Shown: piece after piece, positions 7,851 through 63,767 of the stretch
How positions within the stretch are numbered: position 1 is the first letter of the stretch
Layout: each line of letters opens with the position of its first letter
NCBI GenBank assembly: GCA_043814605.1
Contig: JBDRJV010000028.1
Span: forward strand, 92,350 to 156,349
Origin: Candidatus Omnitrophota bacterium
Lineage (GTDB): Bacteria > Omnitrophota > Gorgyraeia > B26-G9
DNA: 64,000 nt
Reading direction: 5' to 3'
Position numbers and translations under genes: made by a program
Notes under the pieces: model-generated
What the model saw: only the letters and a program-made list of their open reading frames with translations
Database searches by the model: none
What the model was told of the DNA's origin: nothing

Positions 7851-7925
7851 CAAGACATCCTATAATAGGAAAGTAGGAGGATGTCTTGATTATATAGATT
7901 AAAATTATTTTATAGAGAGATTACA
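7851..7925 (+). ncRNA. 5' half of the repeated leader element family A (hairpin aagacatcct..aggatgtctt plus the 'gagattacag' arm), here split by the GxxExxY gene
   Basis: Near-identical to 63069-63150. A promoter-like ttgaca (7787) with ggtataat (7810-7817) lies upstream. Confidence 0.5.
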
Positions 7926-8234
7926 GTGATTAAGGAGAGGGATCTGTTAACTGAGAAAATAATCGCTTGTGCTTATAATGTACATAGTAAACTTGGTCCT
8001 GGATTTAGCGAAAGTATATATCATAAGGCATTAAAAATAGTGTTAAAAGAACAGGGTTTAAAGTATCAAACTGAGAAAAGTTTTGATGTTTGTTTTCAAG
8101 GTAAAAACATTGGTAAATGTAGGCTCGATTTAGTCATCGCTGACAAGATTGTAATAGAACTGAAAGCTCTTAGCGGTAATATTCCTGCTGTATTTGAATC
8201 ACAGGTTTTATCTTATCTAAAAGTATCAGGATAA
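7926..8234 (+). CDS. GxxExxY family protein (PD-(D/E)XK-like), GTG start
   Basis: Motif GPGFSESIYHKAL (G-x-x-E-x-x-Y); 102 aa; sits exactly between the two halves of leader element A. The second copy of the element (63069-63252) lacks the gene. Confidence 0.7.
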   Translation: MIKERDLLTEKIIACAYNVHSKLGPGFSESIYHKALKIVLKEQGLKYQTEKSFDVCFQGKNIGKCRLDLVIADKIVIELKALSGNIPAVFESQVLSYLKVSG

Positions 8235-8282: not shown

Positions 8283-8373
8283 AGATTAATGGTTTAATCT
8301 TCGTAATCTATTGTTAATCGTGGTAATCAGGGATAATCCAATCCAGGAGTGAGGATTATACCAGGAGGTATAA
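8283..8373 (+). ncRNA. 3' half of leader element A (cgtaatc arm plus hairpin gggataatcc..ggattatacc), immediately before the RBS of the 8374 gene
   Basis: Matches 63166-63252 almost base for base. Hairpin ends 12 nt before the ATG and is followed by aggagg. Confidence 0.5.
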
Positions 8374-9078: not shown

Positions 9079-9217
9079 AAGTTTAAAACAAAAAGCATTC
9101 TTAGCTGTAGGGTTAAATTATTTTTAAAAAATATCAAAAGGCTATAATCTAATCTGAGGGAGTCGCCGGGTTTGGTCAGAGGGGAGAACCCTTGAATTCT
9201 TAAAGAGCCAAAGGTTA

Positions 9218-11230
9218 CTATATTGACTGTTCGATTCTCAGGGTGAGAAAATCCTTCTGGAATTTAGGGAAAATAGCATTAATAAAAAACTCGTGCATTT
9301 TTATATCATCAGCAGAGTAAGTCTGCGTAATTTCATTGATTTTTTGTACGAGCAGCAATATCCGTTGCTTTAAATCTTTTGTATTAAGAATTTTCTGGTA
9401 TATTTTAAAATCTGGGTATTTTTTGCATACCTCTAAAAGTTTAAAGTCGACAGTTTTTTTTATAGCATTTATTAAATAATCATACGCTTGTGGATTAAGT
9501 TTCGCTAAGGCATTATGTTTTAATGCTTCTCGAATAGTAATTGGCTTAGCCTGGCCAAAAATTTGCGGCTTATTTTTGTCGTAATCATCAATGCTTAAAA
9601 TATATATTACAGTATCAAAATCAATGAGTTTTTGTTGAGGCGCCAAAATACAAGGCAACCCATTATGATCTGTCCAAAATGTAACTTTATCAGTAGAAAG
9701 ATTCTTTTCCAAGTAATATATAAGGTTCTGTCCTGGCACGAGCGTTAAATGTAATTTAGTACCAGCCACAGGTTTGTTTTCTATGCGCAGATTAGGGCCC
9801 ATCTGCCATAAGGTTAGGATATCCCCGGGCTGGTTATTGTTTTTGCTTAAGTCTAAATATTCTAAAACAGATTTACTCTCAGGATCCAGGGGTTGTTTTT
9901 TATTATGCAAAACTGGTATTTTTTTATGAGTACTGCGCAAAGTTTGATTTTTTGAACCAAATATTTGTATAGGGAAAGATTGTTTTTCTTGATTTTCTTG
10001 ACTTTTAATATGTGAAATAATTAATTTTTTACCGGATACAATCACTTGTATTTCTACATTTTCCTGAGGGTTAAAGTTATTTGGCAAAATATGTTTTTTA
10101 CAGAAATTTACATAACGCTGTGTTTTATCCAATACCTGAACTTTGAGATATCTTACGCGGATTTGAGTGCTTTTTATTTTTAATGAGTCTAGCAGATTGA
10201 AAAGAGCAGAATAGGTCAAGAAGCTTTTTCCACTCTCGTTGCTTATAGTCAGAAATAAGTGCCATTGCCCATCTTCTGGATTGTAATATTCAATACGTAT
10301 AAAATCATCAAAAAATTTATTTTCTGTTTGCTGTTCTGCAGTTGAACTAAGCGGATAAAGCCGATAAGGGCTGCCGTTTTCTGTCCAGATTAACAGCAAA
10401 GAGTTTATAAAAGGACTAAAATATTTTTGCGCGGGAAATTTTGTTAAGTATCGAAACGCTTTTAAATCATTAGTTGGTATCCCGGCAATAAATCCGGTCC
10501 AGGCATTGTATTTTTCTTTTACCTCAAGCTGAGTATCATAAAGTATGCCTTGTTTTGTATAAAATTCAAAAGGTATTAAAAAATTTGGATCAGCTTTATC
10601 GTAATGATTGCGGCAAACCGCTCTTAAGATCGGAAAGTCTGAATTTGGATTTTGAGAAAAGAACATCCTGACTGGCTGGCTGCTCTGACCGGCATAACGT
10701 ATATAATATTTGCCCCATAATATAATATCTGTATTTTTTTTTGTTTTTTTACCCTCAATAATCAAAACCGGATGAGTTTTTAATAATTTATTTAGCGATA
10801 GCTTTAACTGCGTCATGTTTTTTTGTTTGTCGATGATATTTCCGTTTAAATCAAGGATTATAAAAAATCCTTGTTGAATCAGTTCTTTTCTTTGTCCAAT
10901 AGTCTGGGCTTTAAGCCAGGGGGTTTGAGTTAAGTCTTTATTATGCCAGGAATCAGCCATCACCGCGTTATAATTTAATTCCCAATCTTTCAGCGGGAAT
11001 TGAGAGCTGTTTTTTAATGTTACATAGCTGTTATTTACCCAGCTCTTTGGCAGAGCAAGAATAGAAAGGCTTATCTGCGGGGAAAGCATGTTTTGTTGTA
11101 TTTTTTCAACTCCGGCAATCACTGTAGATTGGGGCAGGCATATCAGACAAATAAAACTACAAAAAGCAAATAAGCAAAGCATTTTTATTATTCTGTTATT
11201 TGTAGCCATATTTTCCCCCTCAAAAAGCAT
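9218..11230 (-). CDS. Large secreted hypothetical protein (670 aa) with signal peptide
   Basis: N-terminal hydrophobic signal (MLCLFAFCSFICLICLP); no motif recognised. The likely true start is the internal Met of MATNN. Confidence 0.5.
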   Translation of the reverse strand: MLFEGENMATNNRIIKMLCLFAFCSFICLICLPQSTVIAGVEKIQQNMLSPQISLSILALPKSWVNNSYVTLKNSSQFPLKDWELNYNAVMADSWHNKDLTQTPWLKAQTIGQRKELIQQGFFIILDLNGNIIDKQKNMTQLKLSLNKLLKTHPVLIIEGKKTKKNTDIILWGKYYIRYAGQSSQPVRMFFSQNPNSDFPILRAVCRNHYDKADPNFLIPFEFYTKQGILYDTQLEVKEKYNAWTGFIAGIPTNDLKAFRYLTKFPAQKYFSPFINSLLLIWTENGSPYRLYPLSSTAEQQTENKFFDDFIRIEYYNPEDGQWHLFLTISNESGKSFLTYSALFNLLDSLKIKSTQIRVRYLKVQVLDKTQRYVNFCKKHILPNNFNPQENVEIQVIVSGKKLIISHIKSQENQEKQSFPIQIFGSKNQTLRSTHKKIPVLHNKKQPLDPESKSVLEYLDLSKNNNQPGDILTLWQMGPNLRIENKPVAGTKLHLTLVPGQNLIYYLEKNLSTDKVTFWTDHNGLPCILAPQQKLIDFDTVIYILSIDDYDKNKPQIFGQAKPITIREALKHNALAKLNPQAYDYLINAIKKTVDFKLLEVCKKYPDFKIYQKILNTKDLKQRILLLVQKINEITQTYSADDIKMHEFFINAIFPKFQKDFLTLRIEQSI

Positions 11231-11555: not shown

Positions 11556-12179
11556 ATGGTAAAAATTAATAAAAGTATATTTAGCCGGGCGATTTATTAT
11601 CTAGAGCATCATGAGAAATCCATGCGGGTTCCAGCCTGGATAATCCGCCATCAAAAAGAGGTATTTTTTATTGCCTATCGTATGGGAGAGGTTTTAGGGT
11701 TTGCTTCGGAAAACTTAACTGCCTTAGCAATTACCGCCCGTTTTCACGATATTGGCAAAAGCAATATTGACCCGGGCATTATTAATAATCAAGGTGTTCT
11801 TAGCGATGCGCAGCGTTATGAAGTTTTTGAGCATGTACTTTTTTCTTATCAAATTCTAAAGAAAAAAGGCATAAATTCAAAGATTATTTTAAAAAGCGTG
11901 TTTCATCATCATGAGAATTATGACGGCAGTGGTTATCCGGATAAATTGCGTGCAACAGAAATCCCTGTTTTTGCCCAGATTTTAAGAATTGCGGATTCCT
12001 TCAGTGCCATGCTTGGAGCGCGGCCTTACCGCAACCCTAAGGGAAAAAATTTCAAATCTGCTCTTACGCAAATCGAAAACGGCCGGGGAACATTCTATAA
12101 CCCTAAGATGGTAGATGTTTTTTTAAGGATATTACAAACACCGGATAAAAGCGATTTAATCCCCGGGTTAAACTATTAA
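11556..12179 (+). CDS. Stand-alone HD-GYP domain c-di-GMP phosphodiesterase
   Basis: HDIGK and HHHENYDGSGYPDKL motifs. Confidence 0.8.
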   Translation: MVKINKSIFSRAIYYLEHHEKSMRVPAWIIRHQKEVFFIAYRMGEVLGFASENLTALAITARFHDIGKSNIDPGIINNQGVLSDAQRYEVFEHVLFSYQILKKKGINSKIILKSVFHHHENYDGSGYPDKLRATEIPVFAQILRIADSFSAMLGARPYRNPKGKNFKSALTQIENGRGTFYNPKMVDVFLRILQTPDKSDLIPGLNY

Positions 12180-12209
12180 CACGGATAAAAAAGAAAGAAA
12201 ATTTTTGTA

Positions 12210-15200
12210 ATGCATAATTCTCAAATTTTTCATAAAAAAATCATCCAAAGAATTTTTAGCGTGCTGATTATCAGCGTAATGCTTACCAGTAATATTGCCT
12301 GGGCTGCATTAGATAATCATAATGTTGATACTTTAGCTCCGGCCTTGAATTTAAAAACAGATATTTTTCAGCAAGGAGTTCAAAAGCTGATACAAGACTT
12401 ATCCTCGGATATAGCAGTTGTAACTGACCTCGAAAAAGTAAAAAACATATTATCTGATGATCCAAATTTAGCAAATAACCCCACAATAATAAAAATGCTT
12501 GCAGCTTATGAACAAGCACTTGAGTTTAATTCTCTGGCTATGCAGCAAGTAGCTTTGGCTGAGCAGATGCAAGCAATAGGCAATTTTAAAAGCAAGCAAG
12601 AATATATAGAAAGATTAAAAATGATAGAAAGTTATTTTCTTGATGCGATAAAAATGCTAGATTTGCATTTAAATAATATAGAGAAGGTAAGGGGGATTTT
12701 ACCAGAAGAAAAAAACCAGGTTTTATACGAGATTGCCAGGCTTGGAGCAGAAATATGCGCATCTTTAGCAGATTTTTATTCATTAAATACACACAAATCA
12801 AACCAGTTCTGGATGAAAGCAGAAAAAAACATGGCATTTGCTTTTTCTTTATCTAATATAAAAATTGATTTTTATGCATTAGTCAAAATGGCCACAATTT
12901 ATGGGAAGCTAAGTTTACAATCATCTCTTAAAACAAAAGAAAAAATTAATTTAGTTGATAAATCAATAGCTTTTTTTAAAAAAGCAGAAGAGCAAATACC
13001 TAATCTTGCTAAAATCAAAAAAACAGCTGCAGATATTGCGGATATGTATTCTACATTTTGTAACGTATTTCATGCGGCAGCCTTTTTTGCCGAAGCATTA
13101 CCAGATTATGATAAAGCGTTAAGATATTATGATCAAGCGGAAAAGTTAATCCCGCATTTTATTCAGGATAAATCATATTTAGCAATTATAAAAAAAATGC
13201 ATAAGGATTATTATAATTTAGTTTGGGATTATGCTTCAGCATTGCTTGAAAAAGCAGAAAAACTGAAACCAGAGGAACAAGAAGAACGCAAAAAAGCAAT
13301 AAAGGGATTTTTTCATATTACCAGCCGTATTGCTTTAAAATATTTATCGTATTGTTCAAAAAATGAATTAACAACAGAAGAAAGTATTGAGCCTTTATCT
13401 ATTATTGTGGGCTCGAATCTCGTAGTCGCAACCATTGAATTGGATACAATTAAAAATATAAGCAAAGCTAATCAAAGCTTAAGGCAGGCAGCAGATAACT
13501 TAACTAAAGTAAACCAGTTAAAGCTGTTTAATCCCTTCGACAGTTTTAATAAAGCCCGGTTATATATTCTTTTTATAACTCAACGGATTCAGATGCTTAA
13601 ACAACTGATTTTAAGTGGCGAAGTTTTTAAAAATAATTTTAAAATCACAGAGTATTTAGAACCGGAATTTTTTGGAGAATTTATTAGCCGTTATGAACAA
13701 GGGGAATATAAAGAATTGTTTAGAAAAATACATGCTGAGCAAAAAGATCCTCTTAATCTTGAAAAATTGAGCCAGCAAATATATCTCTATTCTATAATGA
13801 ATAGTAAAGTTTTAAAATTGTTGCAAGAATGTACAGATGCCACCACCAAGGACTTTCAAAGAATTTATGGGGATATTGAATATGAAAAAAAATATAAGGA
13901 GTTTAAACAATATAGATTTAAAGCAGCCATAACAGCTGCAGGGTTATATGTGGTTAACCAGCAATTTAAGCGGGCACAAAAATGTATTAATGTTGCAGTG
14001 CAGGATCAGGCACGATTTATTTCAACTGATTCTTTTCATGAAACAATATTGCCCCAGCTAATACTGGCTCAAGAAAATGGGTTAAATTTTTTAGTCCAAT
14101 TATTATCAAAAAAAGAGGTTAACGAGATTTTAGTTGAAAATTTTATTTCCCATAAGCATGATTTAACTCAAGAAATAATAACATTTTTTACACAAGTTTT
14201 AGATTCCCCGGAGTATAGTTTTTTGCTTAAACAAAACCACATTGTAAAGCTTATCAAAGAACTGGAATTACCGCTTAAAGTCCTTAATAAACAAAAACAA
14301 GATGCAATTCAATCCCCGCAAACAGACGAAATGTTAATTACTGCAGCCAAACAAGCAATAGAGGCATTAAACGGTAACGGCAACGGAAAAACAAAAAAGA
14401 AAAAACAGAAAAAAATAAAAGGTATTGATTTAAAAACAAGCCAAGGCCGCAGGGTTCAGAACGCCTTAACCGTAATTATTGAAAAAGTAGATAACACACC
14501 AAAAAAGAAAGAACAAATAATTACAAAACTAACTGATTATATGCAAACAGTAGTTAATGAGGCTTTAATCCTTAAACAGGCAAATAATATCAGGATGATT
14601 GCCGAGATTTTTGTTTTAACAGAAACAAATTATGGACTGGAGGTTTTGCGAGAATTGGGGCAAGCTGCCGGTACGCCGGCTATTGATTCATTAAGAGAAG
14701 AAATAAATCAATCCTGCAGACAACAGGAGATATATTTAAACAATATGGTTGAAGTTGAGTTAATCGCGCAAGATATAATTGCCCGCTTGGCTAAAATGGA
14801 TACCGCAGATGTCCAGGCGGATAATTTTATTAACGGTATTGAACAAGAATCCCAGAAGTTGCAAAATAAGTATTCTTTTGACAAAGCCAAAGGCAGCAAA
14901 TTAAAAGCTGATTATCAGGCTAAAATTACGCAGGCTTTAATAAGTGCGCGGCAAAGAGTAGAAACAGTAAAAGAAAATAAAATTAGTGTTTTTGAGAGAA
15001 AAGCAGACAGAATTGAAGGCAAATTAAAAGCAAAAATAGAAAAAATTATTAATAAAGAAAATCAGTCTAATTTTCAAAAATATTATTATTTAAAACAATG
15101 GTGGAAAACTTTAGAGTTGCCTTATGCAGACGAAGATATAAAAAATTCACCCAGATGCATACAAGCACAAGAAAAAATCAACTCAACAAAAACAGCAATA

Positions 15201-16094
15201 GATATACAGGTTAACGAAAAACTTTCTCAATTGGCAAAGATGTGTAAAGGAGGAGTTGTTTTTGGGTTATCTGATGATTTTAATACTTTGACTTTTGAAG
15301 TGGTTAAAAAGGTTCATGGACTATCCGAACTTTTTGCTCAGGAAGCAGAGATGCTAATCCCTCAGGCATTAGAATCAAATCCGCAGGTTAATATTATTGC
15401 CTTAACCCCAACCTATGTGGGATTTATTGAACCGACGATAAATAAATGGCAGGAGAAATTAACACAGGCGCGAAAAAAGCAACAAGAAGTTAATGATTTT
15501 ATTAACAAATGCAGTAAAAAAGAAGAATTTCTTAAAGCTGGTTTTAAAAAGATTGTTAATGAGAATAAAAATAGATTCCATAAAATAGAATTGCTTAACA
15601 ATTTCTTCCCTGCACAAAGATCATTCATCCCGCATTTAGATGAAGATATTAACGCTGATGAATACCCGGAAATTATTAAAGCCGTAGATAGTTTGGATAG
15701 CACTTATGATAATCTCTTAAAACAAAAAGATAATTTATCAATTATTTGTTTTGGCAAGCTCAGGATAAAGTTATCTTATGATCCAGACGAAGGGGGATTG
15801 CTGCCAGAGTTTAGTTATGTTAATCCCCAGGATAGGGCGATTAATATTATTCCCGAACAGATAGCGGCAATTCTTGATGATTTACTTGAATTCAACCCAG
15901 ACGTAGATGCTTTTTCAGTAGGAGCAGGCATATCCGGAGAAGAAGAATGGGTTATTGATCTTGCGGATATTTTTGATCGAGAAAAAGAAAAGTTTGATCA
16001 AGCACGCAAAAAGCAGCAAGTAATTCACACAAAAGTTTCTCCAGATACACAATTAACTAATCAATGCAATGTTTTTATCCAATATGCAATTTAA
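12210..16094 (+). CDS. Giant (1294 aa) membrane-anchored alpha-helical/coiled-coil protein, unknown function, 30 nt downstream of the HD-GYP gene
   Basis: N-terminal TM/signal (IIQRIFSVLIISVMLTSNIAWA); K/E/Q-rich helical repeats; poly-Lys patch KKKKQKKIKG. Shares an 'aaaagaaagaaaat' RBS-region motif with the upstream gene. Confidence 0.45.
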   Translation: MHNSQIFHKKIIQRIFSVLIISVMLTSNIAWAALDNHNVDTLAPALNLKTDIFQQGVQKLIQDLSSDIAVVTDLEKVKNILSDDPNLANNPTIIKMLAAYEQALEFNSLAMQQVALAEQMQAIGNFKSKQEYIERLKMIESYFLDAIKMLDLHLNNIEKVRGILPEEKNQVLYEIARLGAEICASLADFYSLNTHKSNQFWMKAEKNMAFAFSLSNIKIDFYALVKMATIYGKLSLQSSLKTKEKINLVDKSIAFFKKAEEQIPNLAKIKKTAADIADMYSTFCNVFHAAAFFAEALPDYDKALRYYDQAEKLIPHFIQDKSYLAIIKKMHKDYYNLVWDYASALLEKAEKLKPEEQEERKKAIKGFFHITSRIALKYLSYCSKNELTTEESIEPLSIIVGSNLVVATIELDTIKNISKANQSLRQAADNLTKVNQLKLFNPFDSFNKARLYILFITQRIQMLKQLILSGEVFKNNFKITEYLEPEFFGEFISRYEQGEYKELFRKIHAEQKDPLNLEKLSQQIYLYSIMNSKVLKLLQECTDATTKDFQRIYGDIEYEKKYKEFKQYRFKAAITAAGLYVVNQQFKRAQKCINVAVQDQARFISTDSFHETILPQLILAQENGLNFLVQLLSKKEVNEILVENFISHKHDLTQEIITFFTQVLDSPEYSFLLKQNHIVKLIKELELPLKVLNKQKQDAIQSPQTDEMLITAAKQAIEALNGNGNGKTKKKKQKKIKGIDLKTSQGRRVQNALTVIIEKVDNTPKKKEQIITKLTDYMQTVVNEALILKQANNIRMIAEIFVLTETNYGLEVLRELGQAAGTPAIDSLREEINQSCRQQEIYLNNMVEVELIAQDIIARLAKMDTADVQADNFINGIEQESQKLQNKYSFDKAKGSKLKADYQAKITQALISARQRVETVKENKISVFERKADRIEGKLKAKIEKIINKENQSNFQKYYYLKQWWKTLELPYADEDIKNSPRCIQAQEKINSTKTAIDIQVNEKLSQLAKMCKGGVVFGLSDDFNTLTFEVVKKVHGLSELFAQEAEMLIPQALESNPQVNIIALTPTYVGFIEPTINKWQEKLTQARKKQQEVNDFINKCSKKEEFLKAGFKKIVNENKNRFHKIELLNNFFPAQRSFIPHLDEDINADEYPEIIKAVDSLDSTYDNLLKQKDNLSIICFGKLRIKLSYDPDEGGLLPEFSYVNPQDRAINIIPEQIAAILDDLLEFNPDVDAFSVGAGISGEEEWVIDLADIFDREKEKFDQARKKQQVIHTKVSPDTQLTNQCNVFIQYAI

Positions 16095-16211
16095 TTATTC
16101 TAAATAATTGGATAAGAGCAGCAATCCATTTCTTAATTAATTTTTTATTCAATATGCAGATAACCTTGATTTTAATCAGAGTTTATGTTATTTTGATAAC
16201 CACTGATAGAT

Positions 16212-16757
16212 ATGAAAAAATTTAATCCACGCAAACAGCATAAATTAAAAGATTATAATTATTCGCGAACAGGGTATTATTATATTACAATATGTACCTA
16301 TAATCGCAGGGAGATTTTTGGCAGCATTCAAAATAATTATATGATTTTAAATGATTACGGTAATATTGCAAGTAAAACATAGGATAAAATTCCCGAGCAT
16401 TTTGCAGATATTGAATTAGATGAATATGTGATAATGCCTAATCATATTCATGGGATAGTCAATATTAAAAATCCTGTAGGGGACGGGCATGCCCGTCCCT
16501 ATTATAAAAACAATAAATTATCAATAATTATTGGTTCATTTAAATCAGCAGTTTCCAAAAAGATAAACATAATTTATGATGGTTTGTTTAAATGGCAACG
16601 ATCGTATTACGATAATGTAATTAGAACAACAAATTCATTACATAAAATAAGGCAATATATTAAAGAAAATCCATCGATGTGGGCAATGGATGAAAATAAT
16701 ATTGTAAATTATCAAGTAAGGGACAAGGCATGCCTTGTCCCTACAGGAACAGAATAA
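16212..16757 (+). pseudogene. tnpA: IS200/RAYT-like Y1 (HuH) tyrosine transposase interrupted by one in-frame TAG (16380-16382)
   Basis: Single frame reads MKKFNPRKQHKLKDYNYSRTGYYYITICTYNRREIFG...ASKT*DKIPEHFADIELDEYVIMPNHIHGIV...WQRSYYDNVIR (HuH HIHGIV plus catalytic SYYD Tyr). TAG is a real stop elsewhere in the window (e.g. MscS, MBL genes), so this is a nonsense mutation or sequencing error. Confidence 0.75.
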
Positions 16758-16825
16758 ATATTAAAAGACTTCTCGCCCTGAAAACAGGGTTCGAAGTTCT
16801 CAAAATTTGTTTCACAAATTTCGCG

Positions 16826-16915
16826 GGAGAGGTGCCGGAGCGGTTTAACGGGCATGCCTGGAGAGCATGTGTAGTCGCAAGGCTACCCAGGGTTCGAATC
16901 CCTGCCTCTCCGCCA
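16826..16915 (+). tRNA. tRNA-Ser (anticodon GGA), type II with long variable arm, CCA encoded
   Basis: Acceptor ggagagg/cctctcc; 3-bp D-stem ccg/cgg; anticodon stem catgc/gcatg with loop cuGGAga; long variable arm; T-arm caggg-ttcgaat-ccctg; discriminator G plus CCA. Confidence 0.85.
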
Positions 16916-17485
16916 AAAATAAAATCCCCTTTTCAGGGGTTTTTATTTCATAGAGGGAAACGAAGTTTTTACCTATGGGCGCTCGTTCCGCCGATGGCGG
17001 GAGCTCGCTGTCACTCCTTTCCATAATGTTGAATTCTTAGTCAAAAAAGATGGGGAGTATTATCCACTTTTTATTTAAAAATCTTTGCCCATCATAGTAA
17101 TTCCTTTAAAATCAATAAGTTAAGTTAAAACAGTTGACAAAGGAAGATTTAGAATGTATACTTAGTAATAGGATTTACAAAGTTTTTATTAACATTTGGA
17201 CAGTTAAATTGAAAGGTGCAAGATAAAGAGACAGGGAAAAAGAAAAAGGAAATTATATTATTTTTGATTACTGAAAAGTAATTATTAAAATTTGTTATTA
17301 GTAGCCCCTATCTCCCAATTGAATACCCTTCAATTATTAAATATCCGAAAAGGCAAACCCTAAGCAATTAGGGGACCCCGGCGATAATTATTCCGGGTCC
17401 CGCCAAAGGCGGGAGCAAAGCTACGGGTCTTTTATCCAAAGATTGCCGAGCATACCGATAACGCGCAGATTAAAAATTGGACAAG

Positions 17486-17541
17486 ACAGCCGAGCTGCCG
17501 AAGTATCTAGATGATGCTTTAGTAGTTCGGCTGTTTTTTTA
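17486..17541 (+). terminator. Hairpin + T7 (acagccga..tcggctgt-ttttttt), 75 nt upstream of the C25 peptidase start; terminator or attenuator of an upstream small transcript
   Basis: 8-bp stem plus T-run. Preceded by GC hairpins ggaccccgg..ccgggtcc and cccgcc-aaagg-cggg in the tRNA-peptidase spacer. Confidence 0.5.
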
Positions 17542-17615: not shown

Positions 17616-20600
17616 ATGAAGAAATTGTTTATAGTTTTATTTGTTTTAAGTATGTTTTCTTTTTTATATTGTATCATTTTTACGAATAATGTGTTTGCTG
17701 AAGAGATTAGAATACCAATTGAGTTCCCTGAACCAATACTTACCCCTGCAAGTAATGGTTATTGGCATATTGAGATGAATGGCATGCGTAGTATTGCCAA
17801 TCCTGGAGAGCCTGTTTTACCGGTAAAAGGGGTAAAGGCACTTATACCTTATAATAACGAAATAAAATCATATCATGTTGAATTAGGCCGGAGGATTGAA
17901 CAGTTTGGTTCTTATAAGATTGAACCTGGCCAAAAAGAGTATCCGTTAAGTTATGAAGGAAAGATAGACTACACCCAGCCTAAGAAAGAAATTTATAAAA
18001 GTGCTGGTGTTTATCCTGCAAAGCGAGCATCTGATAAATTTAACAAACAGCGCTTACATGGATATGAGATTGCGGTTATAAATCTGCATCCTGTGGAATA
18101 TACTCCGATTTCTGGAAAGATTGCTTATTATGATTCAATGACTTTAGTGATAAAAACTCAGAAAAAGTCTAGCACAGCAGCGCCGTTTATTAATCGCCAC
18201 AGCCCTGGAAAAGAAAGGAAATGCCAGGTAAAGAATTTGCCAAGGCATAGAAAAAAATTATTAAGTCTGATTGACAATCCTCAAACTCTAGATACCTATA
18301 ATAGCGCAGTTGATACACAAGATAATAGCGTGATTCAGCAAGAAAATTCTGGTATAGCCGACGAACAAGCAGCAGCGGCGTTTGGTATTGTGCCTTCCGG
18401 GGATTATCGATATGTGATTATTACTGCTGCGGCATTTGAAAATGTTTTTCAAGCGCTTGTTAATCATAAAATTCTCAAAGGCATAATGGCAACGATAGTA
18501 ACTACAGAATGGATATATGCTAATTATGATGGGACTCGTCCTGATGGGGGAATTGATAATGCTACCAAAATCCGGAATTTTATCATTGACGCCTATGAGA
18601 ACTGGAATACAGAATATGTACTCTTAGCTGGCGATGGCGATGGGGCGAATTTGGGAGGTGAAAGTGAAGATAGTATTATCCCTGCAAGATGCCTCCGTAG
18701 CGGCGGGGCAACTATTGCCGCGGATTTGTATTATGCTTGTTTAGATGGTAGTTTTGATAATGATCAGGATGGTGAATATGGCGAAGAAAATGATGGAATA
18801 GATGGAGAGGAAGTTGATCTTGTTGCAGAGGTGTATGTGGGCCGCGCACCAGTTGACTCAATATCTGAGGCGGAAAATTTTGTAAATAAAACTATTCAAT
18901 ACGATGAGATAGGGGGCTCTTATCTGCAGCAATGTTATATGTTAGGAGAATATTTGTGGGTTAAAACATGGGGTGCGGATTATATGGAGGAAATCCGGCT
19001 TGGCTCGGATAATTACGGCTATTCTACAATGGGGTTTATTGAGAATGAATTTTTTAATGTCAAAACGCACTATGATAAAGATAACCCTCCTGTTGGCTGT
19101 CATGGGCAGGAATTAGTGGATATTATTAATAATGAAGTTCATATATTAAATCATGTCGGGCACTGTAATAATTTCTTTCTAGCAAAACTTTATGTGCCGG
19201 ATAAGAATATCTTTGAATCTGAGGAACAAAAAAATAAGTATGCGGATGTTAACTTAATTACCAATGAGAACCCCTTTTTTATGAATAGCCAGGGGTGTTA
19301 TCCGGGAGCATTTGATAATAAGGATGCTTATACCTTAAATTATTTGCCGGATGATTGCATTGCTGAGCATTTATTGGGGGAAGAGAAAGGCGCGTTTGCC
19401 CTCATAGTTAATTCAAGATATGGATGGGGAATTTTAAATTCGACAAACGGTCCTTCACAATATTACCAGCGGCAATTCTGGGATGCGGTATTTAGGGAAG
19501 GAATATTAGAATTAGGCAGAGCTAATCAGGATTCCAAAGAAGATAATATAGAGTTTATTGATTATGGCATGAATCGTTATTGTTATTTTACAGTTAATCT
19601 CTTAGGGGATCCGCAGCTGCAGCTTCATGTAAGTATCCCTGATATTGATTTTTATCTGAGCGCTCCGTTGCTTAATAGTTGCGTAAAGGGAACTATTGAT
19701 TTGATCGGAACTGTTGATGGAAATAAGCTGGATAGCTATGAATTATACTATTGGGAGGAAAAAGATGCGGAGAATAAAATTTTATTAGGAAAGTCATTTT
19801 CTCCAGTCAACGACGGACGTTTAGGGGTCTGGGATACTACAGAATGCGTGGATGGAAATTATGTGCTTGGAGTTCGGGTGATAACAAATAGCATAGACAG
19901 CAACGCCTATTGGCTTGAACGTGCAATTAAAGTTGATAATGTAAATGAGCCGCCTGTTTTTAAACAAACATCAAGCAAAGGTGCCATTGCGAATGATGTT
20001 CTTCATCCTGAAGAACCAGAACGCGATGTTTATCTTTTGTTTTCCGTAAGTGCTGAAGATCCTGATGATCCGAACACACAAGCAGGAACACTGGTGTATT
20101 CTGCGGAAAATATTCCTCGTAGAGCAAATTTTAATGCAGATACAGGAAGTTTTTCATGGGCTCCTTTAATTTCAGATATAGGACGGCATACAGTAACATT
20201 GAAAGTCCAAGATAGTGAACATTTGATAACTCAGAATATAGATATTTATGTGTTTGAAGCTGATAGTACCAAAATAACTGGTACTAATTATTGGGATCAT
20301 TGTGATATTGATGAATATCAGGAGCCAGTGATAGGTAAAACACTTACTTATAAAGTATGGCAGAAGGACCTGGGGAGCATTGGTGCGGATAATATTATTT
20401 TTAGTAATATGTCGGAAATTGTGAAATATAATATAAATGAACCGCAAGAACCGACACGGATTAGTGATAATGGCAGGGATACGCGATTCTTAGCAGTTTC
20501 GCAGAATCGAATAGTGTGGAATACTCGGGACTACTCGAATTATGAGAAAATATTATCAGATATATTAATACATGATTTGGAAAGTGGACAGGAGAGACAA

Positions 20601-21947
20601 ATTACCAATATGCCTGCTGAACGCAGATATATTAATATAGAAGGAAATTATATAGTCTGGCAGGACAAAAGAAATGGCAACTGGGATATCTACATGTATA
20701 ATATCGCAGATGGGGCAGAGGTGCAAGTTACTGATGAGCCTTGCGATCAGAAATATCCAGGCATCTCTGGTAACCGGATAGTTTGGCAGCAAATAAGAGA
20801 AAAAGATGGTTACTGGGATATCTATATGTATGATATTACAACTGGCGTAAAAACACAGATTACTGATTCCCCTTTTAATCAGCAACATCCCTGTATTTCA
20901 GGCAACCGCATAGTTTGGTCGGAAAAGATATTTTTTAACTGGCATGAAGATTCGGATATTTTTATGTATGATATAGCAAGCGGCCAGACAACGCAGATTA
21001 CTAACGATCCTGCAGCACAAGATTATCCAATTATCAAAGGAGATATGATAACCTGGCTTGACCACCGAAGTGATGACCTTTATGGGGATCTGATGTGGGA
21101 TATTTATATGTATAATTTAAATTATAATATCGAAGTTAAAGTTAATAATAATATGTTGTTCGGGGATTATGGTGGTTCTACTAATCCGACGAATATTCCT
21201 GTAATCTATGATGGCCGGATTCTCTGGGCAGGAGGTGATTATTATAATGATGGTATTTATGTATTTAACATGATATTTAATACACCGCCAGAAATTTTTC
21301 CTGTTTTTGCTCAAGAAGTTTTTGAGGAAAAACCAGTTGCTTTCTATGTACGAGCTACAGATAATGAAGGAGACGAATTAATATATAACGCGCAATTAGC
21401 TGTTTCCGGAGAGTTGGTTTCAACATTAGGCGCGAGTTTTACTACAGTTATTCTGGGAGATTTTAATCAGGATGGCCGAGTGGATATGCAGGATTGGTTG
21501 ATGTTCAGTTCAGCTTGGGGCGCAGTAAAAGGAGATGAAAATTATAATGCTCAAGTAGACTTAGACAGTGACGGAAAAATTAACATACTTGATCAGCAGA
21601 TATTTAGCACAAACTGGGGGACTACAGATTATTCTGGCACTAAGGCTGGATTTTTTGAATGGGTGCCTGCGCAGCATCAAGGGCCTGATGATTACGAATT
21701 GGAATTTATAGCTACAGATAATCATAATGCTGCAGGGAAGGGGTTAATTACAATTACAGTGTATATCCAGGGAGATTTTAATAAAGACGGCCGGGTAGAT
21801 ATGCAAGATTGGTTGATTTTTAGTTCAGCTTGGGGCGCAGTAAAAGGAGATGAGAATTATCTTCCGGATGTTGATCTAAATAATGACGGAAAAATTGATA
21901 TGCTTGATCAGCAAATATTTAGTAGTAATTGGGGGAGAACAGACTAA
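17616..21947 (+). CDS. Secreted peptidase C25 (gingipain-like cysteine protease) with beta-propeller repeats and two C-terminal dockerin domains
   Basis: Signal peptide. C25 signature region YVIITAAAFENVF..IRNFIIDAYENWNTEYVLLAGDGDG..IP plus His/Cys candidates (HVGHCNNF, NSQGCYPGAFD). About 5 repeats of 'GNRIVW..WDIYMYD..G..TQITD'. Two dockerin-type Ca-binding repeats (GDFNQDGRVDMQDW..DLDSDGKINILD and the GDFNKDGRVDMQDW paralog). Confidence 0.7.
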   Translation: MKKLFIVLFVLSMFSFLYCIIFTNNVFAEEIRIPIEFPEPILTPASNGYWHIEMNGMRSIANPGEPVLPVKGVKALIPYNNEIKSYHVELGRRIEQFGSYKIEPGQKEYPLSYEGKIDYTQPKKEIYKSAGVYPAKRASDKFNKQRLHGYEIAVINLHPVEYTPISGKIAYYDSMTLVIKTQKKSSTAAPFINRHSPGKERKCQVKNLPRHRKKLLSLIDNPQTLDTYNSAVDTQDNSVIQQENSGIADEQAAAAFGIVPSGDYRYVIITAAAFENVFQALVNHKILKGIMATIVTTEWIYANYDGTRPDGGIDNATKIRNFIIDAYENWNTEYVLLAGDGDGANLGGESEDSIIPARCLRSGGATIAADLYYACLDGSFDNDQDGEYGEENDGIDGEEVDLVAEVYVGRAPVDSISEAENFVNKTIQYDEIGGSYLQQCYMLGEYLWVKTWGADYMEEIRLGSDNYGYSTMGFIENEFFNVKTHYDKDNPPVGCHGQELVDIINNEVHILNHVGHCNNFFLAKLYVPDKNIFESEEQKNKYADVNLITNENPFFMNSQGCYPGAFDNKDAYTLNYLPDDCIAEHLLGEEKGAFALIVNSRYGWGILNSTNGPSQYYQRQFWDAVFREGILELGRANQDSKEDNIEFIDYGMNRYCYFTVNLLGDPQLQLHVSIPDIDFYLSAPLLNSCVKGTIDLIGTVDGNKLDSYELYYWEEKDAENKILLGKSFSPVNDGRLGVWDTTECVDGNYVLGVRVITNSIDSNAYWLERAIKVDNVNEPPVFKQTSSKGAIANDVLHPEEPERDVYLLFSVSAEDPDDPNTQAGTLVYSAENIPRRANFNADTGSFSWAPLISDIGRHTVTLKVQDSEHLITQNIDIYVFEADSTKITGTNYWDHCDIDEYQEPVIGKTLTYKVWQKDLGSIGADNIIFSNMSEIVKYNINEPQEPTRISDNGRDTRFLAVSQNRIVWNTRDYSNYEKILSDILIHDLESGQERQITNMPAERRYINIEGNYIVWQDKRNGNWDIYMYNIADGAEVQVTDEPCDQKYPGISGNRIVWQQIREKDGYWDIYMYDITTGVKTQITDSPFNQQHPCISGNRIVWSEKIFFNWHEDSDIFMYDIASGQTTQITNDPAAQDYPIIKGDMITWLDHRSDDLYGDLMWDIYMYNLNYNIEVKVNNNMLFGDYGGSTNPTNIPVIYDGRILWAGGDYYNDGIYVFNMIFNTPPEIFPVFAQEVFEEKPVAFYVRATDNEGDELIYNAQLAVSGELVSTLGASFTTVILGDFNQDGRVDMQDWLMFSSAWGAVKGDENYNAQVDLDSDGKINILDQQIFSTNWGTTDYSGTKAGFFEWVPAQHQGPDDYELEFIATDNHNAAGKGLITITVYIQGDFNKDGRVDMQDWLIFSSAWGAVKGDENYLPDVDLNNDGKIDMLDQQIFSSNWGRTD

Positions 21948-28509: not shown

Positions 28510-28565
28510 TACAGCGTCTAGCGTTTAGCGATTAGCGTTTAGAAAAAAGAAATTTCTCGTTATTT

Positions 28566-28636
28566 GCTACTCTCTACTCGTTGAGAACATTAATATTAAT
28601 TTTAGCGAAATTCCCGCAAGGGCGGGGCTACTTTAA
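28566..28636 (+). repeat. Repeat element D copy 1 (71 nt: gctactctctactcgttgagaacattaatattaattttagcgaaattcccgcaagggcggggctactttaaa), ends 10 nt before the 28647 start
   Basis: Second copy at 32243-32313 (2 differences). Contains hairpin cccgc-aagg-gcggg and the rc of the agtagagagtagc motif. Preceded by the 'tagcgtttagcgattagcgtttag' micro-repeat (28518-28541). Confidence 0.7.
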
Positions 28637-31875: not shown

Positions 31876-32242
31876 ACGATAACCGATCTTTGGGAATCAA
31901 ATAAAAACACATCCTATGAAATAATGTTTATTTTCTGGCAATTTATGCCCGAAGACTATGCCGCCAAAAAACCATCCTTGGTTTATGGCGTTTCGACATC
32001 CTGCCAGCCTCGCCGTTACAGTGAGGTTGGCATGAAGATGGCTAGGCGGGTCTTCATCTTCGTACATAAATTAAAGAAAATCACACATAATTTCATTATG
32101 GCTGCTTTTTTTATTTAATTTTCAAATAAGTAATTAAATCAAAAATTGTTCGCAAACTGTAGTAATATTATAAATAGGGTAAAGGGAATCAAGATAAGGA
32201 GAAAGTGAAAAAATCTCGCTACTTGCTTGTGCCCGTAAGGGT

Positions 32243-32313
32243 GCTACTCTCTACTCGTTGAGAACATTAATATTAATTTTAGCGAAATCCCGCAAGGGCG
32301 GGGCTACTTTAAA
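32243..32313 (+). repeat. Repeat element D copy 2, ends 10 nt before the GTG start at 32324
   Basis: See 28566-28636. Confidence 0.7.
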
Positions 32314-36826: not shown

Positions 36827-37040
36827 GCTAATATAATAACATAGAACAAGTGATAAAGAGGGATAATAAATAATCCTGTAGGGACAGCCCCGACGAAGGA
36901 GGGGTGCGAAGCAGGCACTGCCCTGTCCTTCAACAATAGTACAAAAATAATAATATAGACCAGAGGCATTGCTTGTCTGCTAACAAATAAAAACACATCC
37001 AGTGAAATTATGTTTATTTTCTAATAATTTATCCGGTCGT

Positions 37041-37247
37041 GTCTTGTGTTTATTCACACCAGACCACTCGTTGGTCCCCAGCGAGGCCCAACTTCGTTCG
37101 GCGATCCGTGTTCGCGCTTGAGGCTTTAATAATTTTTTAGCCTCAAACCATGCCTGCTCACACTTCTCAACGTCCGGCTTAGAATAAACACATAACACAT
37201 AACAGCTATGAGCTATCAGCCATAAGCTAGTTACTGGCAACCTTTTT
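37041..37247 (+). ncRNA. Structured RNA element B copy 1 (~200 nt, hairpin-rich, ends in a T-run), candidate sRNA
   Basis: Paralog at 40964-41168 (~85% identity). Compensatory changes preserve the stems (gttgg..ccaac vs gttagg..cctaac; gtgtttattc..gaataaacac vs gtatttattc..gaataaatac); loop-only changes in the gaggc-loop-gcctc hairpin. Confidence 0.55.
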
Positions 37248-40864: not shown

Positions 40865-40963
40865 ACTCTAAAATCTTCTTCCTAAACCTTAAGTAAAAGT
40901 TATTTTATCTTACAGTAGCTGATATTTTTTTCGTTCAATTTAAATTTATTTTTCACAAACACT

Positions 40964-41168
40964 GTCTCGTATTTATTCACACCGGAACACTTGTTAGGCC
41001 CCGGCGAGGCCTAACTTCGTTCGGCGATTTGTGTTCGCTCTTGAGGCTTTATTTATCTTTTAGCCTCAACCCATGCCCGCTCACACTGCTCAACGTCCGG
41101 CTTTGAATAAATACTCGCCAGTAGTATCAACTTTAAAGAATAAAGCTTGTAACTGTCAGCTTTTTTTA
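40964..41168 (+). ncRNA. Structured RNA element B copy 2, ending in a clear intrinsic terminator (aaagct-tgtaactgtc-agcttt + T7 at 41141-41168)
   Basis: See copy 1. Lies 100 nt after the thyX stop. Followed by the micro-repeat gctaatcgctaaacg (41199-41213, rc of the 28518 motif). Confidence 0.55.
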
Positions 41169-41225: not shown

Positions 41226-41253
41226 TTGACAAACCAAGAGCAGTTGATATAAT
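41226..41253 (+). promoter_or_regulatory. Promoter of the cobalamin-riboswitch operon (TTGACA-N16-TATAAT)
   Basis: ttgaca 41226-31, tataat 41248-53. Confidence 0.6.
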
Positions 41254-41257
41254 ACAA

Positions 41258-41500
41258 AACAAATACAGGTGCTCTTAGGAAGAGCTTAAAAAGGGAAGTA
41301 TGGTTTAAAGCCATCACGGTCCCGCCGCTGTAACTGAGGACGAAACTTATAAAGCCACTTTCTTAGCATTTAAGATGGGAAGGTATAGGGAGTAGGATGA
41401 TTCAGAAGTCAGAAGACCTGCCTGTTATTAATAAGTGTATAGCAGAAATGGATTTTCGCTATCCTCGCGGAAGGATGAATTAAAATCAGGGTGCAATCCT
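41258..41500 (+). promoter_or_regulatory. Cobalamin (AdoCbl) riboswitch
   Basis: aaaaAGGGAAgtatGGTttaaagCCatCACGGTCCCGCCgCTGTaa core (B12-box-like), plus downstream aaGCCACTTtcttagcatttaagatGGGAAGGTa and aGTCAGAAGACCTGCC segments matching the Rfam cobalamin consensus. Confidence 0.8.
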
Positions 41501-46373: not shown

Positions 46374-46425
46374 AAAAATATTAGCTACAGGTGTTAGGTT
46401 ACAAGTTTCAGGCCAAAACATTTTT

Positions 46426-46530
46426 ATACATCTGCGGCCTAAAACCGCGCCCATTTATGGCGCGGATAAAAGGAAGCTGCTTGAATATTCCACCCCAGGA
46501 ACCACGGGCTTTAGCTTGTGGGGGTTCCAT
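46426..46530 (+). ncRNA. Structured RNA element C copy 1 (~105 nt)
   Basis: ~92% identical to 49503-49607. Stem acggg/cccgt in copy 2 becomes acggg/cttgt in copy 1, so the transitions convert G-C to G·U pairs on the + strand only; conserved hairpin ccgcgcc-atttat-ggcgcgg. Confidence 0.55.
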
Positions 46531-46746
46531 TTATGACTTGCAGCTTGATTCCGGATACTTGTAACTTGAAAGGTGGTGATCAAAGATTAGAAAATGTGAT
46601 TTTTTGCTAGGGGTTTTTATTCAATAAGTGAAAAAACAACGTTAAGAGAGAAGGAAATAACCAGATAAACAAAGGAACTCCCGTAACCTAATTGTATATA
46701 AAACTACAATTAAGAATTCGGGGACTGCCCCGCAACGGTAATATTT

Positions 46747-46810
46747 GGAAGTAGCAAGTAGAGAGTAGCAAGTAGAGAGAATCCAAAAAAATCTCGCTAC
46801 TCGGATCTCG
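46747..46810 (+). repeat. Heptamer-based repeat element F (agtagcaagtagagagtagcaagtagagag ... tctcgctactcgg ... cttgctact), imperfect palindrome upstream of the TonB-dependent receptor gene
   Basis: Shares the agtagagagtagc and aaaaaatctcgctact motifs with 32215-32260, with element D (as reverse complement) and with 63716-63750 (agagtagagag x4). Confidence 0.6.
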
Positions 46811-49428: not shown

Positions 49429-49502
49429 CCATCCATGCATCTACGAGGTGGAAATATGGTTGGATTTGACAAAAATTGACTAAAAAGAGTACAATGAATT
49501 TA

Positions 49503-49607
49503 TACATCCGCGGCCTAAAACCGCGCCCCTTTATGGCGCGGATAAAAGGATGCCGCTTGAGTATTCCACCCCAGGAACCACGGGCTTTAGCCCGTAGGGG
49601 TTCCATT
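49503..49607 (+). ncRNA. Structured RNA element C copy 2, 24 nt upstream of the DJ-1/PfpI gene
   Basis: See 46426-46530. Confidence 0.55.
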
Positions 49608-49630
49608 AATTTATAAAGAAACGGAAAAGA

Positions 49631-63068: not shown

Positions 63069-63252
63069 AAGACATCCTATAATGGGAAAGAAGGATGATG
63101 TCTTGATTATATAGATTAAAGTTATTTTATAGGGAGATTACAGTAATTAAGCAGAAGGATCCATTAGATGGTTTAATTTTCGTAATCTATTGTTAATCGT
63201 TGTAATCAGGTATAATCCAATCCAGGAGTGAGGATTATACCAGGAGATTCTT
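63069..63252 (+). ncRNA. Leader element A, intact uninterrupted copy (~185 nt) in the 5' UTR of a CBS-domain gene
   Basis: Hairpin aagacatcct..ggatgatgtctt (63069-63105); long-range arms gagattaca/cgtaatct; hairpin ggtataatcc-aatccaggagtga-ggattatacc (63209-63241); then caggag RBS and ATG at 63253. Colinear with 7851-7925 plus 8283-8373. Confidence 0.55.
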
Positions 63253-63708: not shown

Positions 63709-63767
63709 TTTATGGAGTAAAGAGTAGAGAGTAGAGAGTAGAGAGTAGAGAGAAAGGGGTGTAAGGC

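Follow-up and report, generated by a model that had tools for sequence, protein, structure and literature searches.

An amber-interrupted RAYT gene of probable TnpAY1 subclass 2.4 type, with REPs in its own reading frame, in an Omnitrophota genome

We analysed a transposase gene and its surroundings in a 64,000-nucleotide stretch of DNA from a Candidatus Omnitrophota genome (the window). The locus is probably, at roughly 85%, a REPtron of the TnpAY1 subclass 2.4 or RAYT group 4 type in an AT-rich genome, with its cognate REPs lying in frame inside the coding sequence of their own transposase. The gene in the window is most likely a decayed, amber-interrupted new member of this widespread and already published kind of RAYT. 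Two hairpins within the reading frame are genuine REPs, one family present twice in inverted orientation, and comparison with related loci indicates that selection acts on the DNA hairpin and its foot, with the encoded peptide as a passenger.

Results

A Y1 transposase gene of the RAYT family

TnpAY1 subclass 2.4 is the same group as RAYT group 4 of Bertels et al. 2017 (Quentin, Siguier, Chandler & Fichant 2018, BMC Genomics 19:475, PMC6006769). The gene and its protein motifs are placed as follows.

16212-16757, plus strand: RAYT / TnpAY1 subclass 2.4 gene, probable pseudogene; 181 codons with one amber, TAA end at 16757
16380-16382, plus strand: in-frame TAG in place of the codon for the nearly invariant Trp W57; TGG to TAG transition at 16381
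16440-16451, plus strand: HuH motif NHIH (N77-H80), read from the sequence and its translation; fits the subclass 2.4 form NH[IFV]H
16593-16625, plus strand: W motif region WQRSYYDNVIR (W128-R138), placed by profile alignment to 4er8
16656-16673, plus strand: Tyr motif YIKENP, aligned to DYIYINP of 4er8; Y149 (codon 16656-16658) is the predicted catalytic Tyr

Translation of 16212-16757 gave one continuous frame in which the TAG at 16380-16382 was the single internal stop, as had been proposed in the original prediction. With the stop masked, the protein passed the gathering cutoff of the Pfam family Y1_Tnp (PF01797; 25.7 bits, cutoff 23). The top NCBIfam match was REP_Tyr_transpos (NF047646) with 52.2 bits, which does not reach the equivalog cutoff of 80. 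The same model was matched by all 44 aligned relatives with a top E-value of 7.5e-19; because this best score is itself estimated at only about 68 bits, the shortfall of the window protein looks like a property of the subclass rather than a result of decay. The score against the NCBIfam model transpos_IS200 (NF033573) was 16.3 bits, below the cutoff of 55. A profile built from the 44 relatives matched the E. coli TnpAREP structure 4er8 (E = 1.9e-4), with the WQ....(E/D)H..R and Y...NP blocks aligned. The AF2 model (mean pLDDT 81) had a Y1 transposase fold, and Foldseek matched it to the TnpA proteins of IS200, IS608 and ISDra2 and to 4er8, the last of which gave the best query TM-score (TMq 0.58). 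Judged by sequence and predicted structure, the product is a RAYT/IS200-like Y1 transposase, as first proposed, and a predicted single-domain HuH/Tyr endonuclease of single-stranded DNA.

Members of subclass 2.4 have the HuH motif NH[IFV]H, the W motif WQ, the Tyr motif YIxNNP, and half of them are longer than 194 aa, the median (PMC6006769). The window protein was assigned to this subclass because its NHIH, WQ and YIKENP motifs match the published signature. YIKENP agrees with the class 2 signature Y---NP and has E for N relative to the subclass form YIxNNP, which is also the consensus of the homologs. In E. coli TnpAREP the GTAG tetranucleotide is contacted by W94, Q95, E100, H101 and R104 (PMC6006769). 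W128, Q129 and R138 of the window protein aligned with W94, Q95 and R104, and D134 and N135 took the positions of E100 and H101, so that one GTAG-contacting position has Asn (N135) where the family consensus is His. The catalytic Tyr had been placed in the sequence SYYD. The alignment with 4er8 shows that assignment to be wrong: the predicted catalytic residue is Y149 in QYIKENP, and WQRSYYD is the W motif, in the GTAG-recognition region.

A protein search returned 593 homologs, of which the closest (54-63% identity) came from Omnitrophota MAGs. Homologs at E <= 1e-30 were found in Cyanobacteria, Bacteroidota, Chloroflexota and Pasteurellaceae, which are the taxa that the literature lists for subclass 2.4 or group 4, and at this threshold the family comprises 8,395 cluster representatives (50% identity).

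The amber codon

The W57 column contained Trp in at least 90% of 44 aligned sequences, and every other nearly invariant residue in that alignment was intact in the window protein. TAG terminates 3 of the 29 long open reading frames in the window. A 586-nt contig in ENA (ERZ928008, here L081) was identical to 16271-16815, TAG included; over its first ~45 nt it departs from the window sequence, a hint of a second context or strain. Two products of the window, of 1294 aa and 56 aa, were looked up in the assembly index and neither was on record there, and L081 therefore comes from a different assembly. Since W57 is nearly invariant, the TAG is reproduced in L081 and TAG is a stop elsewhere in the window, the gene is most likely a pseudogene that arose by a TGG to TAG change, with a one-base sequencing error or a strain polymorphism as the possible alternatives. 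The lesion is taken to be recent because the remaining nearly invariant residues are intact.

Recoding of TAG was considered and ruled out, in line with the earlier view: TAG ends other reading frames, homologs have Trp at this position, and one copy in the nearest genomic relative (L001) is stopped prematurely at another codon (G37). L001 also carries a second, 5′-truncated copy of 419 nt (96% identity) that spans REP1 to REP2. Decay is common among the near relatives, at positions other than W57.

An intact and active gene, with the TAG explained as an error of sequencing or assembly, as a variant of a minor strain or as a codon that is read through, would accord with the presence of one lesion only, with the preservation of the other nearly invariant residues and with the fact that both REPs are still perfect palindromes. 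Against this stand the identical TAG in a separate assembly, the use of TAG as a terminator in other reading frames of the window, and the decay of subclade relatives at other positions. On balance we think it unlikely that the gene is intact, and treat it as a recent pseudogene in what follows.

Two inverted REPs in the reading frame

The two hairpins are located as follows.

16476-16499, plus strand: REP1, GTAG foot at 16476-16479 followed by a 20-nt perfect palindrome at 16480-16499; in frame as V89-P96, with CT ahead of the foot (16474-16475)
16720-16744, minus strand: REP2, 22-nt perfect palindrome at 16720-16741 with its foot at 16741-16744; inverted with respect to REP1, in frame as the C-terminal tail R170-T178

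The palindromes are GGGACGGGCATGCCCGTCCC (REP1, 16480-16499) and GGGACAAGGCATGCCTTGTCCC (REP2, 16720-16741), and the expectation of two near-identical, GC-rich palindromes that are both in frame was borne out at these positions. A search of the 64 kb (~35% GC) with the palindrome pattern gave two matches, both in the gene, where 0.00 were expected from 100 shuffles. Folded as single-stranded DNA, the two palindromes gave energies of -9.6 kcal/mol and -10.1/-10.4 kcal/mol, with z-scores of -3.4 to -5.0. GTAG lies directly 5′ of REP1 (cctGTAGgggac...), and CTAC lies directly 3′ of REP2 on the plus strand, which is GTAG on the minus strand. When REP2 was reverse-complemented it aligned in register with REP1, the flanking CCTGTAG included, and the REP consensus is CCTGTAGGGGNNNGGCATGCCNNNCCCC. 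In both cases, on the plus strand for REP1 and on the minus strand for REP2, GTAG is followed by a GGG..CCC stem base of three G-C pairs. Canonical REPs are defined by the tag GT[AG]G, placed 5′ at the foot of their GC-rich hairpin, and TnpAREP uses this tag for recognition and as a guide (PMC3733652, PMC6006769, PMC8266576), and the REPs of subclass 2.4 are long and 'double-foot', with three G-C pairs at the stem base (PMC6006769). The dinucleotide CT was found immediately 5′ of GTAG in both window REPs and in 13 of 18 aligned REPs of the subclade.

REP1 lies between the HuH and Tyr motifs and starts 40 nt past the first HuH codon, close to the family median offset of 46 nt. REP2 forms the final ~10 codons, and the pair brackets the C-terminal half of the gene, which carries the W and Tyr motifs. 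In the AF2 model, pLDDT values below 50 were confined to residues 89-98 and 168-181; the former is the only such segment inside the protein and falls between the strand 78-85 and the helix 102-122. The peptides encoded by REP1 and REP2 are thus predicted to be disordered and peripheral, and the protein should tolerate them. The REP insert of subclass 2.4 has likewise been modelled as a peripheral extension (PMC6006769). Such tolerance of a disordered loop explains how the REPs persist in the reading frame; it does not explain what the REPs do.

Conservation of the hairpins among relatives

DNA was compared at nine close loci (L001 and L162-L170, minus L164, which duplicates L163). REP1 was present in eight of them, at +259 to +269 from the gene start, and was missing from this position in L166. 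A REP2-type hairpin was found at the 3′ end in seven of the nine (+505 to +545). Stems differed from locus to locus (GGGAC.., GGGAT.., GGACA.., GGGCC.. and GGGCT..), and in L165 the foot of both REPs was GCAG. Among 18 REP1 and REP2 sequences from 10 close loci, 96.7% of cells were paired. The same 18 REPs contained 32 double-sided stem changes against 10 in shuffles (0/500), and all four variable stem pairs had changed on both sides, none on one side only.

A second set comprised 140 loci of the family from many phyla, including metagenome contigs at <=43% identity among the matches listed. A GC-rich perfect hairpin lay between HuH and WQR in 106 of these (76%), and 104 of the 106 had a GT[AG]G or C[TC]AC foot. 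Altogether 135 hairpins were found, with 121 distinct sequences. The HuH-WQR interval held 3.97 hairpin-bearing loci per kb, compared with 0.111 tagged hairpins per kb outside the RAYT zones, a difference of ~36x. The GTAG foot was translated in the frame GTA-GGG 66 times and in the frame xGT-AGG 23 times, and never in the frame that turns TAG into a stop.

REPs in frame inside tnpAREP, generally between HuH and Y, are the feature unique to subclass 2.4 (PMC6006769), and because they are its published hallmark the arrangement seen here is not novel. The palindromes had originally been taken for a REP invasion or a non-canonical arrangement, a view that cannot be upheld now that the equivalent position is seen to be occupied in 76% of the 140 loci. 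The internal REP position is ancestral and family-wide.

We also considered that the palindromes are kept for the peptides that they encode, VGDGHARP and ACLVPTG, with no role as nucleic acid. Close homologs do have similar peptides at both positions, VGDGHARP or VGTGHALS behind the HuH motif and, at the C-terminus, ACLVPTG or ACLAPTG. Across the family, however, the peptides vary widely, whereas hairpin and GTAG/CTAC foot persist; stem changes are always compensatory, two reading frames are in use, and both peptides are predicted to be disordered. In L168, moreover, REP2 occupies the same DNA position and straddles the stop codon. Selection for the peptides is therefore very unlikely. Since stem changes are compensatory, two frames are used, and hairpin and foot outlast the divergence of the peptides, selection is on the DNA hairpin and its foot, and the peptide is carried along. 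It had been allowed at the outset that the palindromes might be confined to the gene and be conserved protein-coding sequence. They do not recur elsewhere in the window and they are conserved in homologs, but this conservation is that of the DNA hairpin, not of the peptide.

Covariation cannot tell hairpins in RNA from hairpins in single-stranded DNA, and the hairpins might act mainly in the mRNA, with REP2 stabilising or terminating the transcript at its 3′ end and REP1 providing a checkpoint of translation or decay. REP2 is at the 3′ end of the reading frame, and REPs elsewhere are known 3′-UTR elements (PMC3733652). The conserved, inverted GTAG/CTAC foot, on the other hand, is the element by which TnpAREP recognises single-stranded DNA and is guided on it, and has no obvious role in RNA; in the mRNA, REP2 would present CUAC and not GUAG, and no run of T follows it. 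A main role in mRNA thus seems to us improbable, if less so than selection for the peptides, and the hairpins are best read as elements of single-stranded DNA.

Surroundings of the gene

Two neighbouring features had been linked to the gene in the original prediction.

16826-16915, plus strand: tRNA-Ser(GGA), found with ARAGORN and Rfam; adjacent to the RAYT gene and probably unrelated to it
16072-16088 and 16142-16158 (span 16072-16158), plus strand: direct repeat of a 17-mer, 16/17 identical, with both copies upstream of the gene

The tRNA-Ser(GGA) does begin after 68 nt from the TAA of the RAYT gene (16757), as had been stated. Its interpretation as an integration hotspot did not hold: only 1 of 60 homologous loci had a tRNA within 100 nt and, to our knowledge, Y1 HuH enzymes are not tRNA-targeting integrases. 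The direct repeat is likewise real, and rare (two such local repeats in the window against ~0.3 per 64 kb in Markov controls), but it is not the insertion footprint that it was suggested to be, since its copies bracket only 53 nt and not the RAYT element. We know of no target duplication in Y1 transposition of the IS200/IS605 type; the geometry, with both copies upstream, and this mechanism together rule out target-site duplication by the RAYT as the source of the 17-mers.

In the earlier account, a mobile element with its transposase had recently integrated beside tRNA-Ser and REPs had then invaded the gene. The tRNA 68 nt downstream, the rare direct repeat upstream, and 11-nt identities of the tRNA with REP1 and with the intergenic region could be cited in its favour. 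They are outweighed by the ancestral, family-wide position of the internal REP, by the single tRNA-adjacent locus among 60, and by 17-mers that do not flank a gene whose type of enzyme is not known to make target duplications. The gene of relatives, furthermore, is found among housekeeping genes, as in L163, where it lies between xseA and xseB. Recent integration followed by REP invasion is accordingly highly improbable, and an inherited internal REP remains the preferred reading.

The window is rich in other short repeats, which had been thought mobilisable by the transposase. None of these repeat families contained the GTAG-footed GC hairpins that were sought in them, and they were ruled out as RAYT substrates. 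Hairpin scans that covered the 64-kb window and 158 kb from loci of the close subclade detected no further REP copies. With no dispersed REPs in these 64 kb and 158 kb, any REP-mobilising role of this RAYT is therefore without a visible product.

Discussion

What the protein would do at its REPs

The biochemistry in the literature concerns group 2 and group 3 enzymes only (PMC8266576), and on the function of the internal REPs of subclass 2.4 we found nothing past the 2018 description. By analogy with the group 2 and group 3 enzymes, we infer that proteins of this family bind and cleave REPs. For the protein encoded here, the ligand would be a REP folded in single-stranded DNA. The GTAG foot may then be read as a guide through the WQ...D(H)..R region, and cutting and rejoining would take place at a nearby CT, for which the CT directly 5′ of GTAG at both REPs is a candidate.

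In the Omnitrophota subclade, the only substrates of the RAYT could conceivably be the REPs of its own reading frame. This suggestion, which we regard as doubtful, arises from the lack of a dispersed REP in ~158 kb together with the rearranged partial copies. Inverted REPs around the catalytic half would, on such a scheme, drive self-directed cutting and rejoining. If so, the outcome would be autoregulation or the copying of REP-bounded gene segments, instead of the mobilisation of a genomic REP population. Hints in this direction are the 419-nt REP1-REP2 partial copy in L001 and the alternative 5′ junction in L081.

A third hint is seen in L169 (ERZ28669879), where a tandem array of deletion derivatives has junctions that abut REP feet. 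It lies on a contig with 1.27x coverage and a fold-back, and the array may be an artefact; for these reasons it was not relied on as evidence of REP-directed recombination.

Significance

With in-frame REPs in RAYT genes on record since 2018, and in a very large family, the locus has small discovery value. It extends the range of subclass 2.4 to Omnitrophota-like genomes, and the compensatory stems, the covariation of the foot and the frame usage give quantitative support for selection on the DNA hairpin rather than the encoded peptide. A subclade with a translated 3′ REP and no visible dispersed REPs also comes to light. For annotation, peptides like VGDGHARP and ACLVPTG in 'transposase' matches should be recognised as translated REPs.

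Comparison with known systems

The closest known system is subclass 2.4 itself. The window protein shares with it the NH[IFV]H, WQ and Y---NP motifs and a length of ~180-195 aa, and the REPs share the GT[AG]G foot, the three G-C pairs and the location, one in the beta3:alphaC loop and one at the edge of the gene. The patchy but wide phyletic spread is also common to both. The hosts described are Cyanobacteria, Bacteroidetes and scattered other phyla (PMC6006769); the papers name Cyanobacteria, Bacteroidetes, Chlorobia and Caldilineae, whereas the host here belongs to the Omnitrophota. The window gene differs further in its YIKENP, with E for the consensus N, and in a HuH-Tyr spacing of 72 aa against a median of 88. 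In the window's subclade the 3′ REP is translated as a C-terminal tail; no dispersed REPs are found nearby, and the window copy is interrupted by a nonsense mutation.

E. coli TnpAREP (YafM; 4ER8), of subclass 2.2 or RAYT group 2, has the same Y1 HuH fold (TMq 0.58), the same WQ....(E/D)H..R and Y...NP blocks, and GTAG-footed REPs that are inverted around the gene. Sequence similarity between the two proteins is weak. In E. coli the REPs lie on either side of the gene, their stem is bulged and they are dispersed in hundreds of copies, whereas those of the window have perfect stems, lie inside the reading frame and have no dispersed copies in the 64 kb.

The TnpA proteins of the IS200/IS605 family (IS608, ISDra2) resemble the window protein in fold and in HuH/Tyr chemistry, and the ends of these elements are hairpins with a 5′ guide tetranucleotide. 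Their Tyr motif is Y---Q in contrast to Y---NP here, and the window protein scores below the transpos_IS200 cutoff. The window hairpins, moreover, do not bracket the whole gene as LE and RE would, and the gene is present in one copy in the 64-kb window.

Palindromic repeats that are tolerated in frame, in loops or at termini, are also known as intragenic REPs and as Rickettsia palindromic elements (Di Nocera et al. 2013, PMC3733652). Those repeats are scattered in unrelated genes at sites that are not conserved. In the system described here, by contrast, REPs are inserted into the gene of their own transposase, at a site that is conserved from one phylum to another.

Copies of the RAYT gene in other assemblies and relatives

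A second assembly of the RAYT gene is provided by an independent contig of 586 nt (L081, ENA ERZ928008), which is identical to window positions 16271-16815, the TAG codon included. Upstream of this match, positions 1-45 of the contig diverge completely from the window, within the N-terminal coding region. This divergence points to another genomic context or another strain, or else to a graph artefact.

The nearest genomic relative (L001), from an Omnitrophota MAG, carries RAYT copies at 1579-2118 and 9154-9572. One copy has a premature stop at codon 37; the second, 5′-truncated and 419 nt long, is 96% identical, and its REPs are beginning to lose their pairing. At a further homologous locus (L163, 6849-8924) the RAYT gene sits between the genes for the large (xseA) and the small (xseB) exonuclease VII subunit.

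In the relative L169 (4351-5880, mirrored at 11878-14869), a tandem array of deletion derivatives lies 3′ of an intact RAYT gene. At REP1 the junctions of the array adjoin the 3′ side, and at REP2 they adjoin the CTAC foot; reiterations of 47 nt surrounding the HuH codons are present in the array as well. Because this contig has a coverage of 1.27x and a fold-back structure, the array may be an artefact.

Both REPs of the relative L165 (10262-10285 and 10519-10542) have the foot GCAG/CTGC in place of GTAG/CTAC. The foot therefore co-varies within one genome.

Surroundings of the RAYT gene

A 17-nt direct repeat is present upstream of the RAYT gene, with 16 of its 17 positions identical:

16072-16088, first copy, overlapping the upstream ORF (1294 aa) at its 3′ end
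16142-16158, second copy, 70 nt further on

Such local direct repeats are rare by chance, with about 0.3 expected per 64 kb. The RAYT gene is not flanked by its two copies.

Resemblances involving tRNA-Ser were also seen. The exact 11-mer ACGGGCATGCC is common to REP1 (16483-16493) and the tRNA (16848-16858), the 11-mer CAGGGTTCGAA in the RAYT-tRNA spacer (16785-16795) recurs identically in the tRNA T-arm (16888-16898), and the variable arm of the tRNA, GTAGTCGCAAGGCTAC, is itself a GTAG...CTAC hairpin. These are probably coincidences.

Other repeats in the window

Runs of the heptamer GAGTAGA (7 matches in the window versus 0.02 expected) were found at four places:

28567-28579 (-)
32244-32256 (-)
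46756-46768 (+)
63715-63748 (+)

Two of these runs fall in a pair of 50-nt units, 28565-28614 and 32242-32291, which share 98% identity. The runs were considered as REP-like elements and rejected, since they contain GTAG without a hairpin.

Three long-range repeat pairs, of approximately 80-110 nt and 90-96% identity, are also present:

7852-7949 and 63069-63166
8289-8367 and 63168-63246
46423-46534 and 49499-49610

The last pair holds a GC hairpin, CCGCGCC..GGCGCGG, which lacks a GTAG foot.

Riboswitches

Two riboswitches were detected with Rfam:

17342-17502 (+), c-di-GMP-I riboswitch, 38.2 bits (gathering cutoff 35)
41250-41439 (+), cobalamin riboswitch, 104.9 bits

A 152-nt repeat (37040-37191 and 40963-41114, 87% identical) terminates shortly 5′ of the cobalamin riboswitch. 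The c-di-GMP-I riboswitch lies shortly 5′ of a 1443-aa ORF (17616-21947). Close to the C-terminus of this ORF are tandem repeats, at 21449-21631 and 21764-21946, that share 81% identity and to us look dockerin-like.
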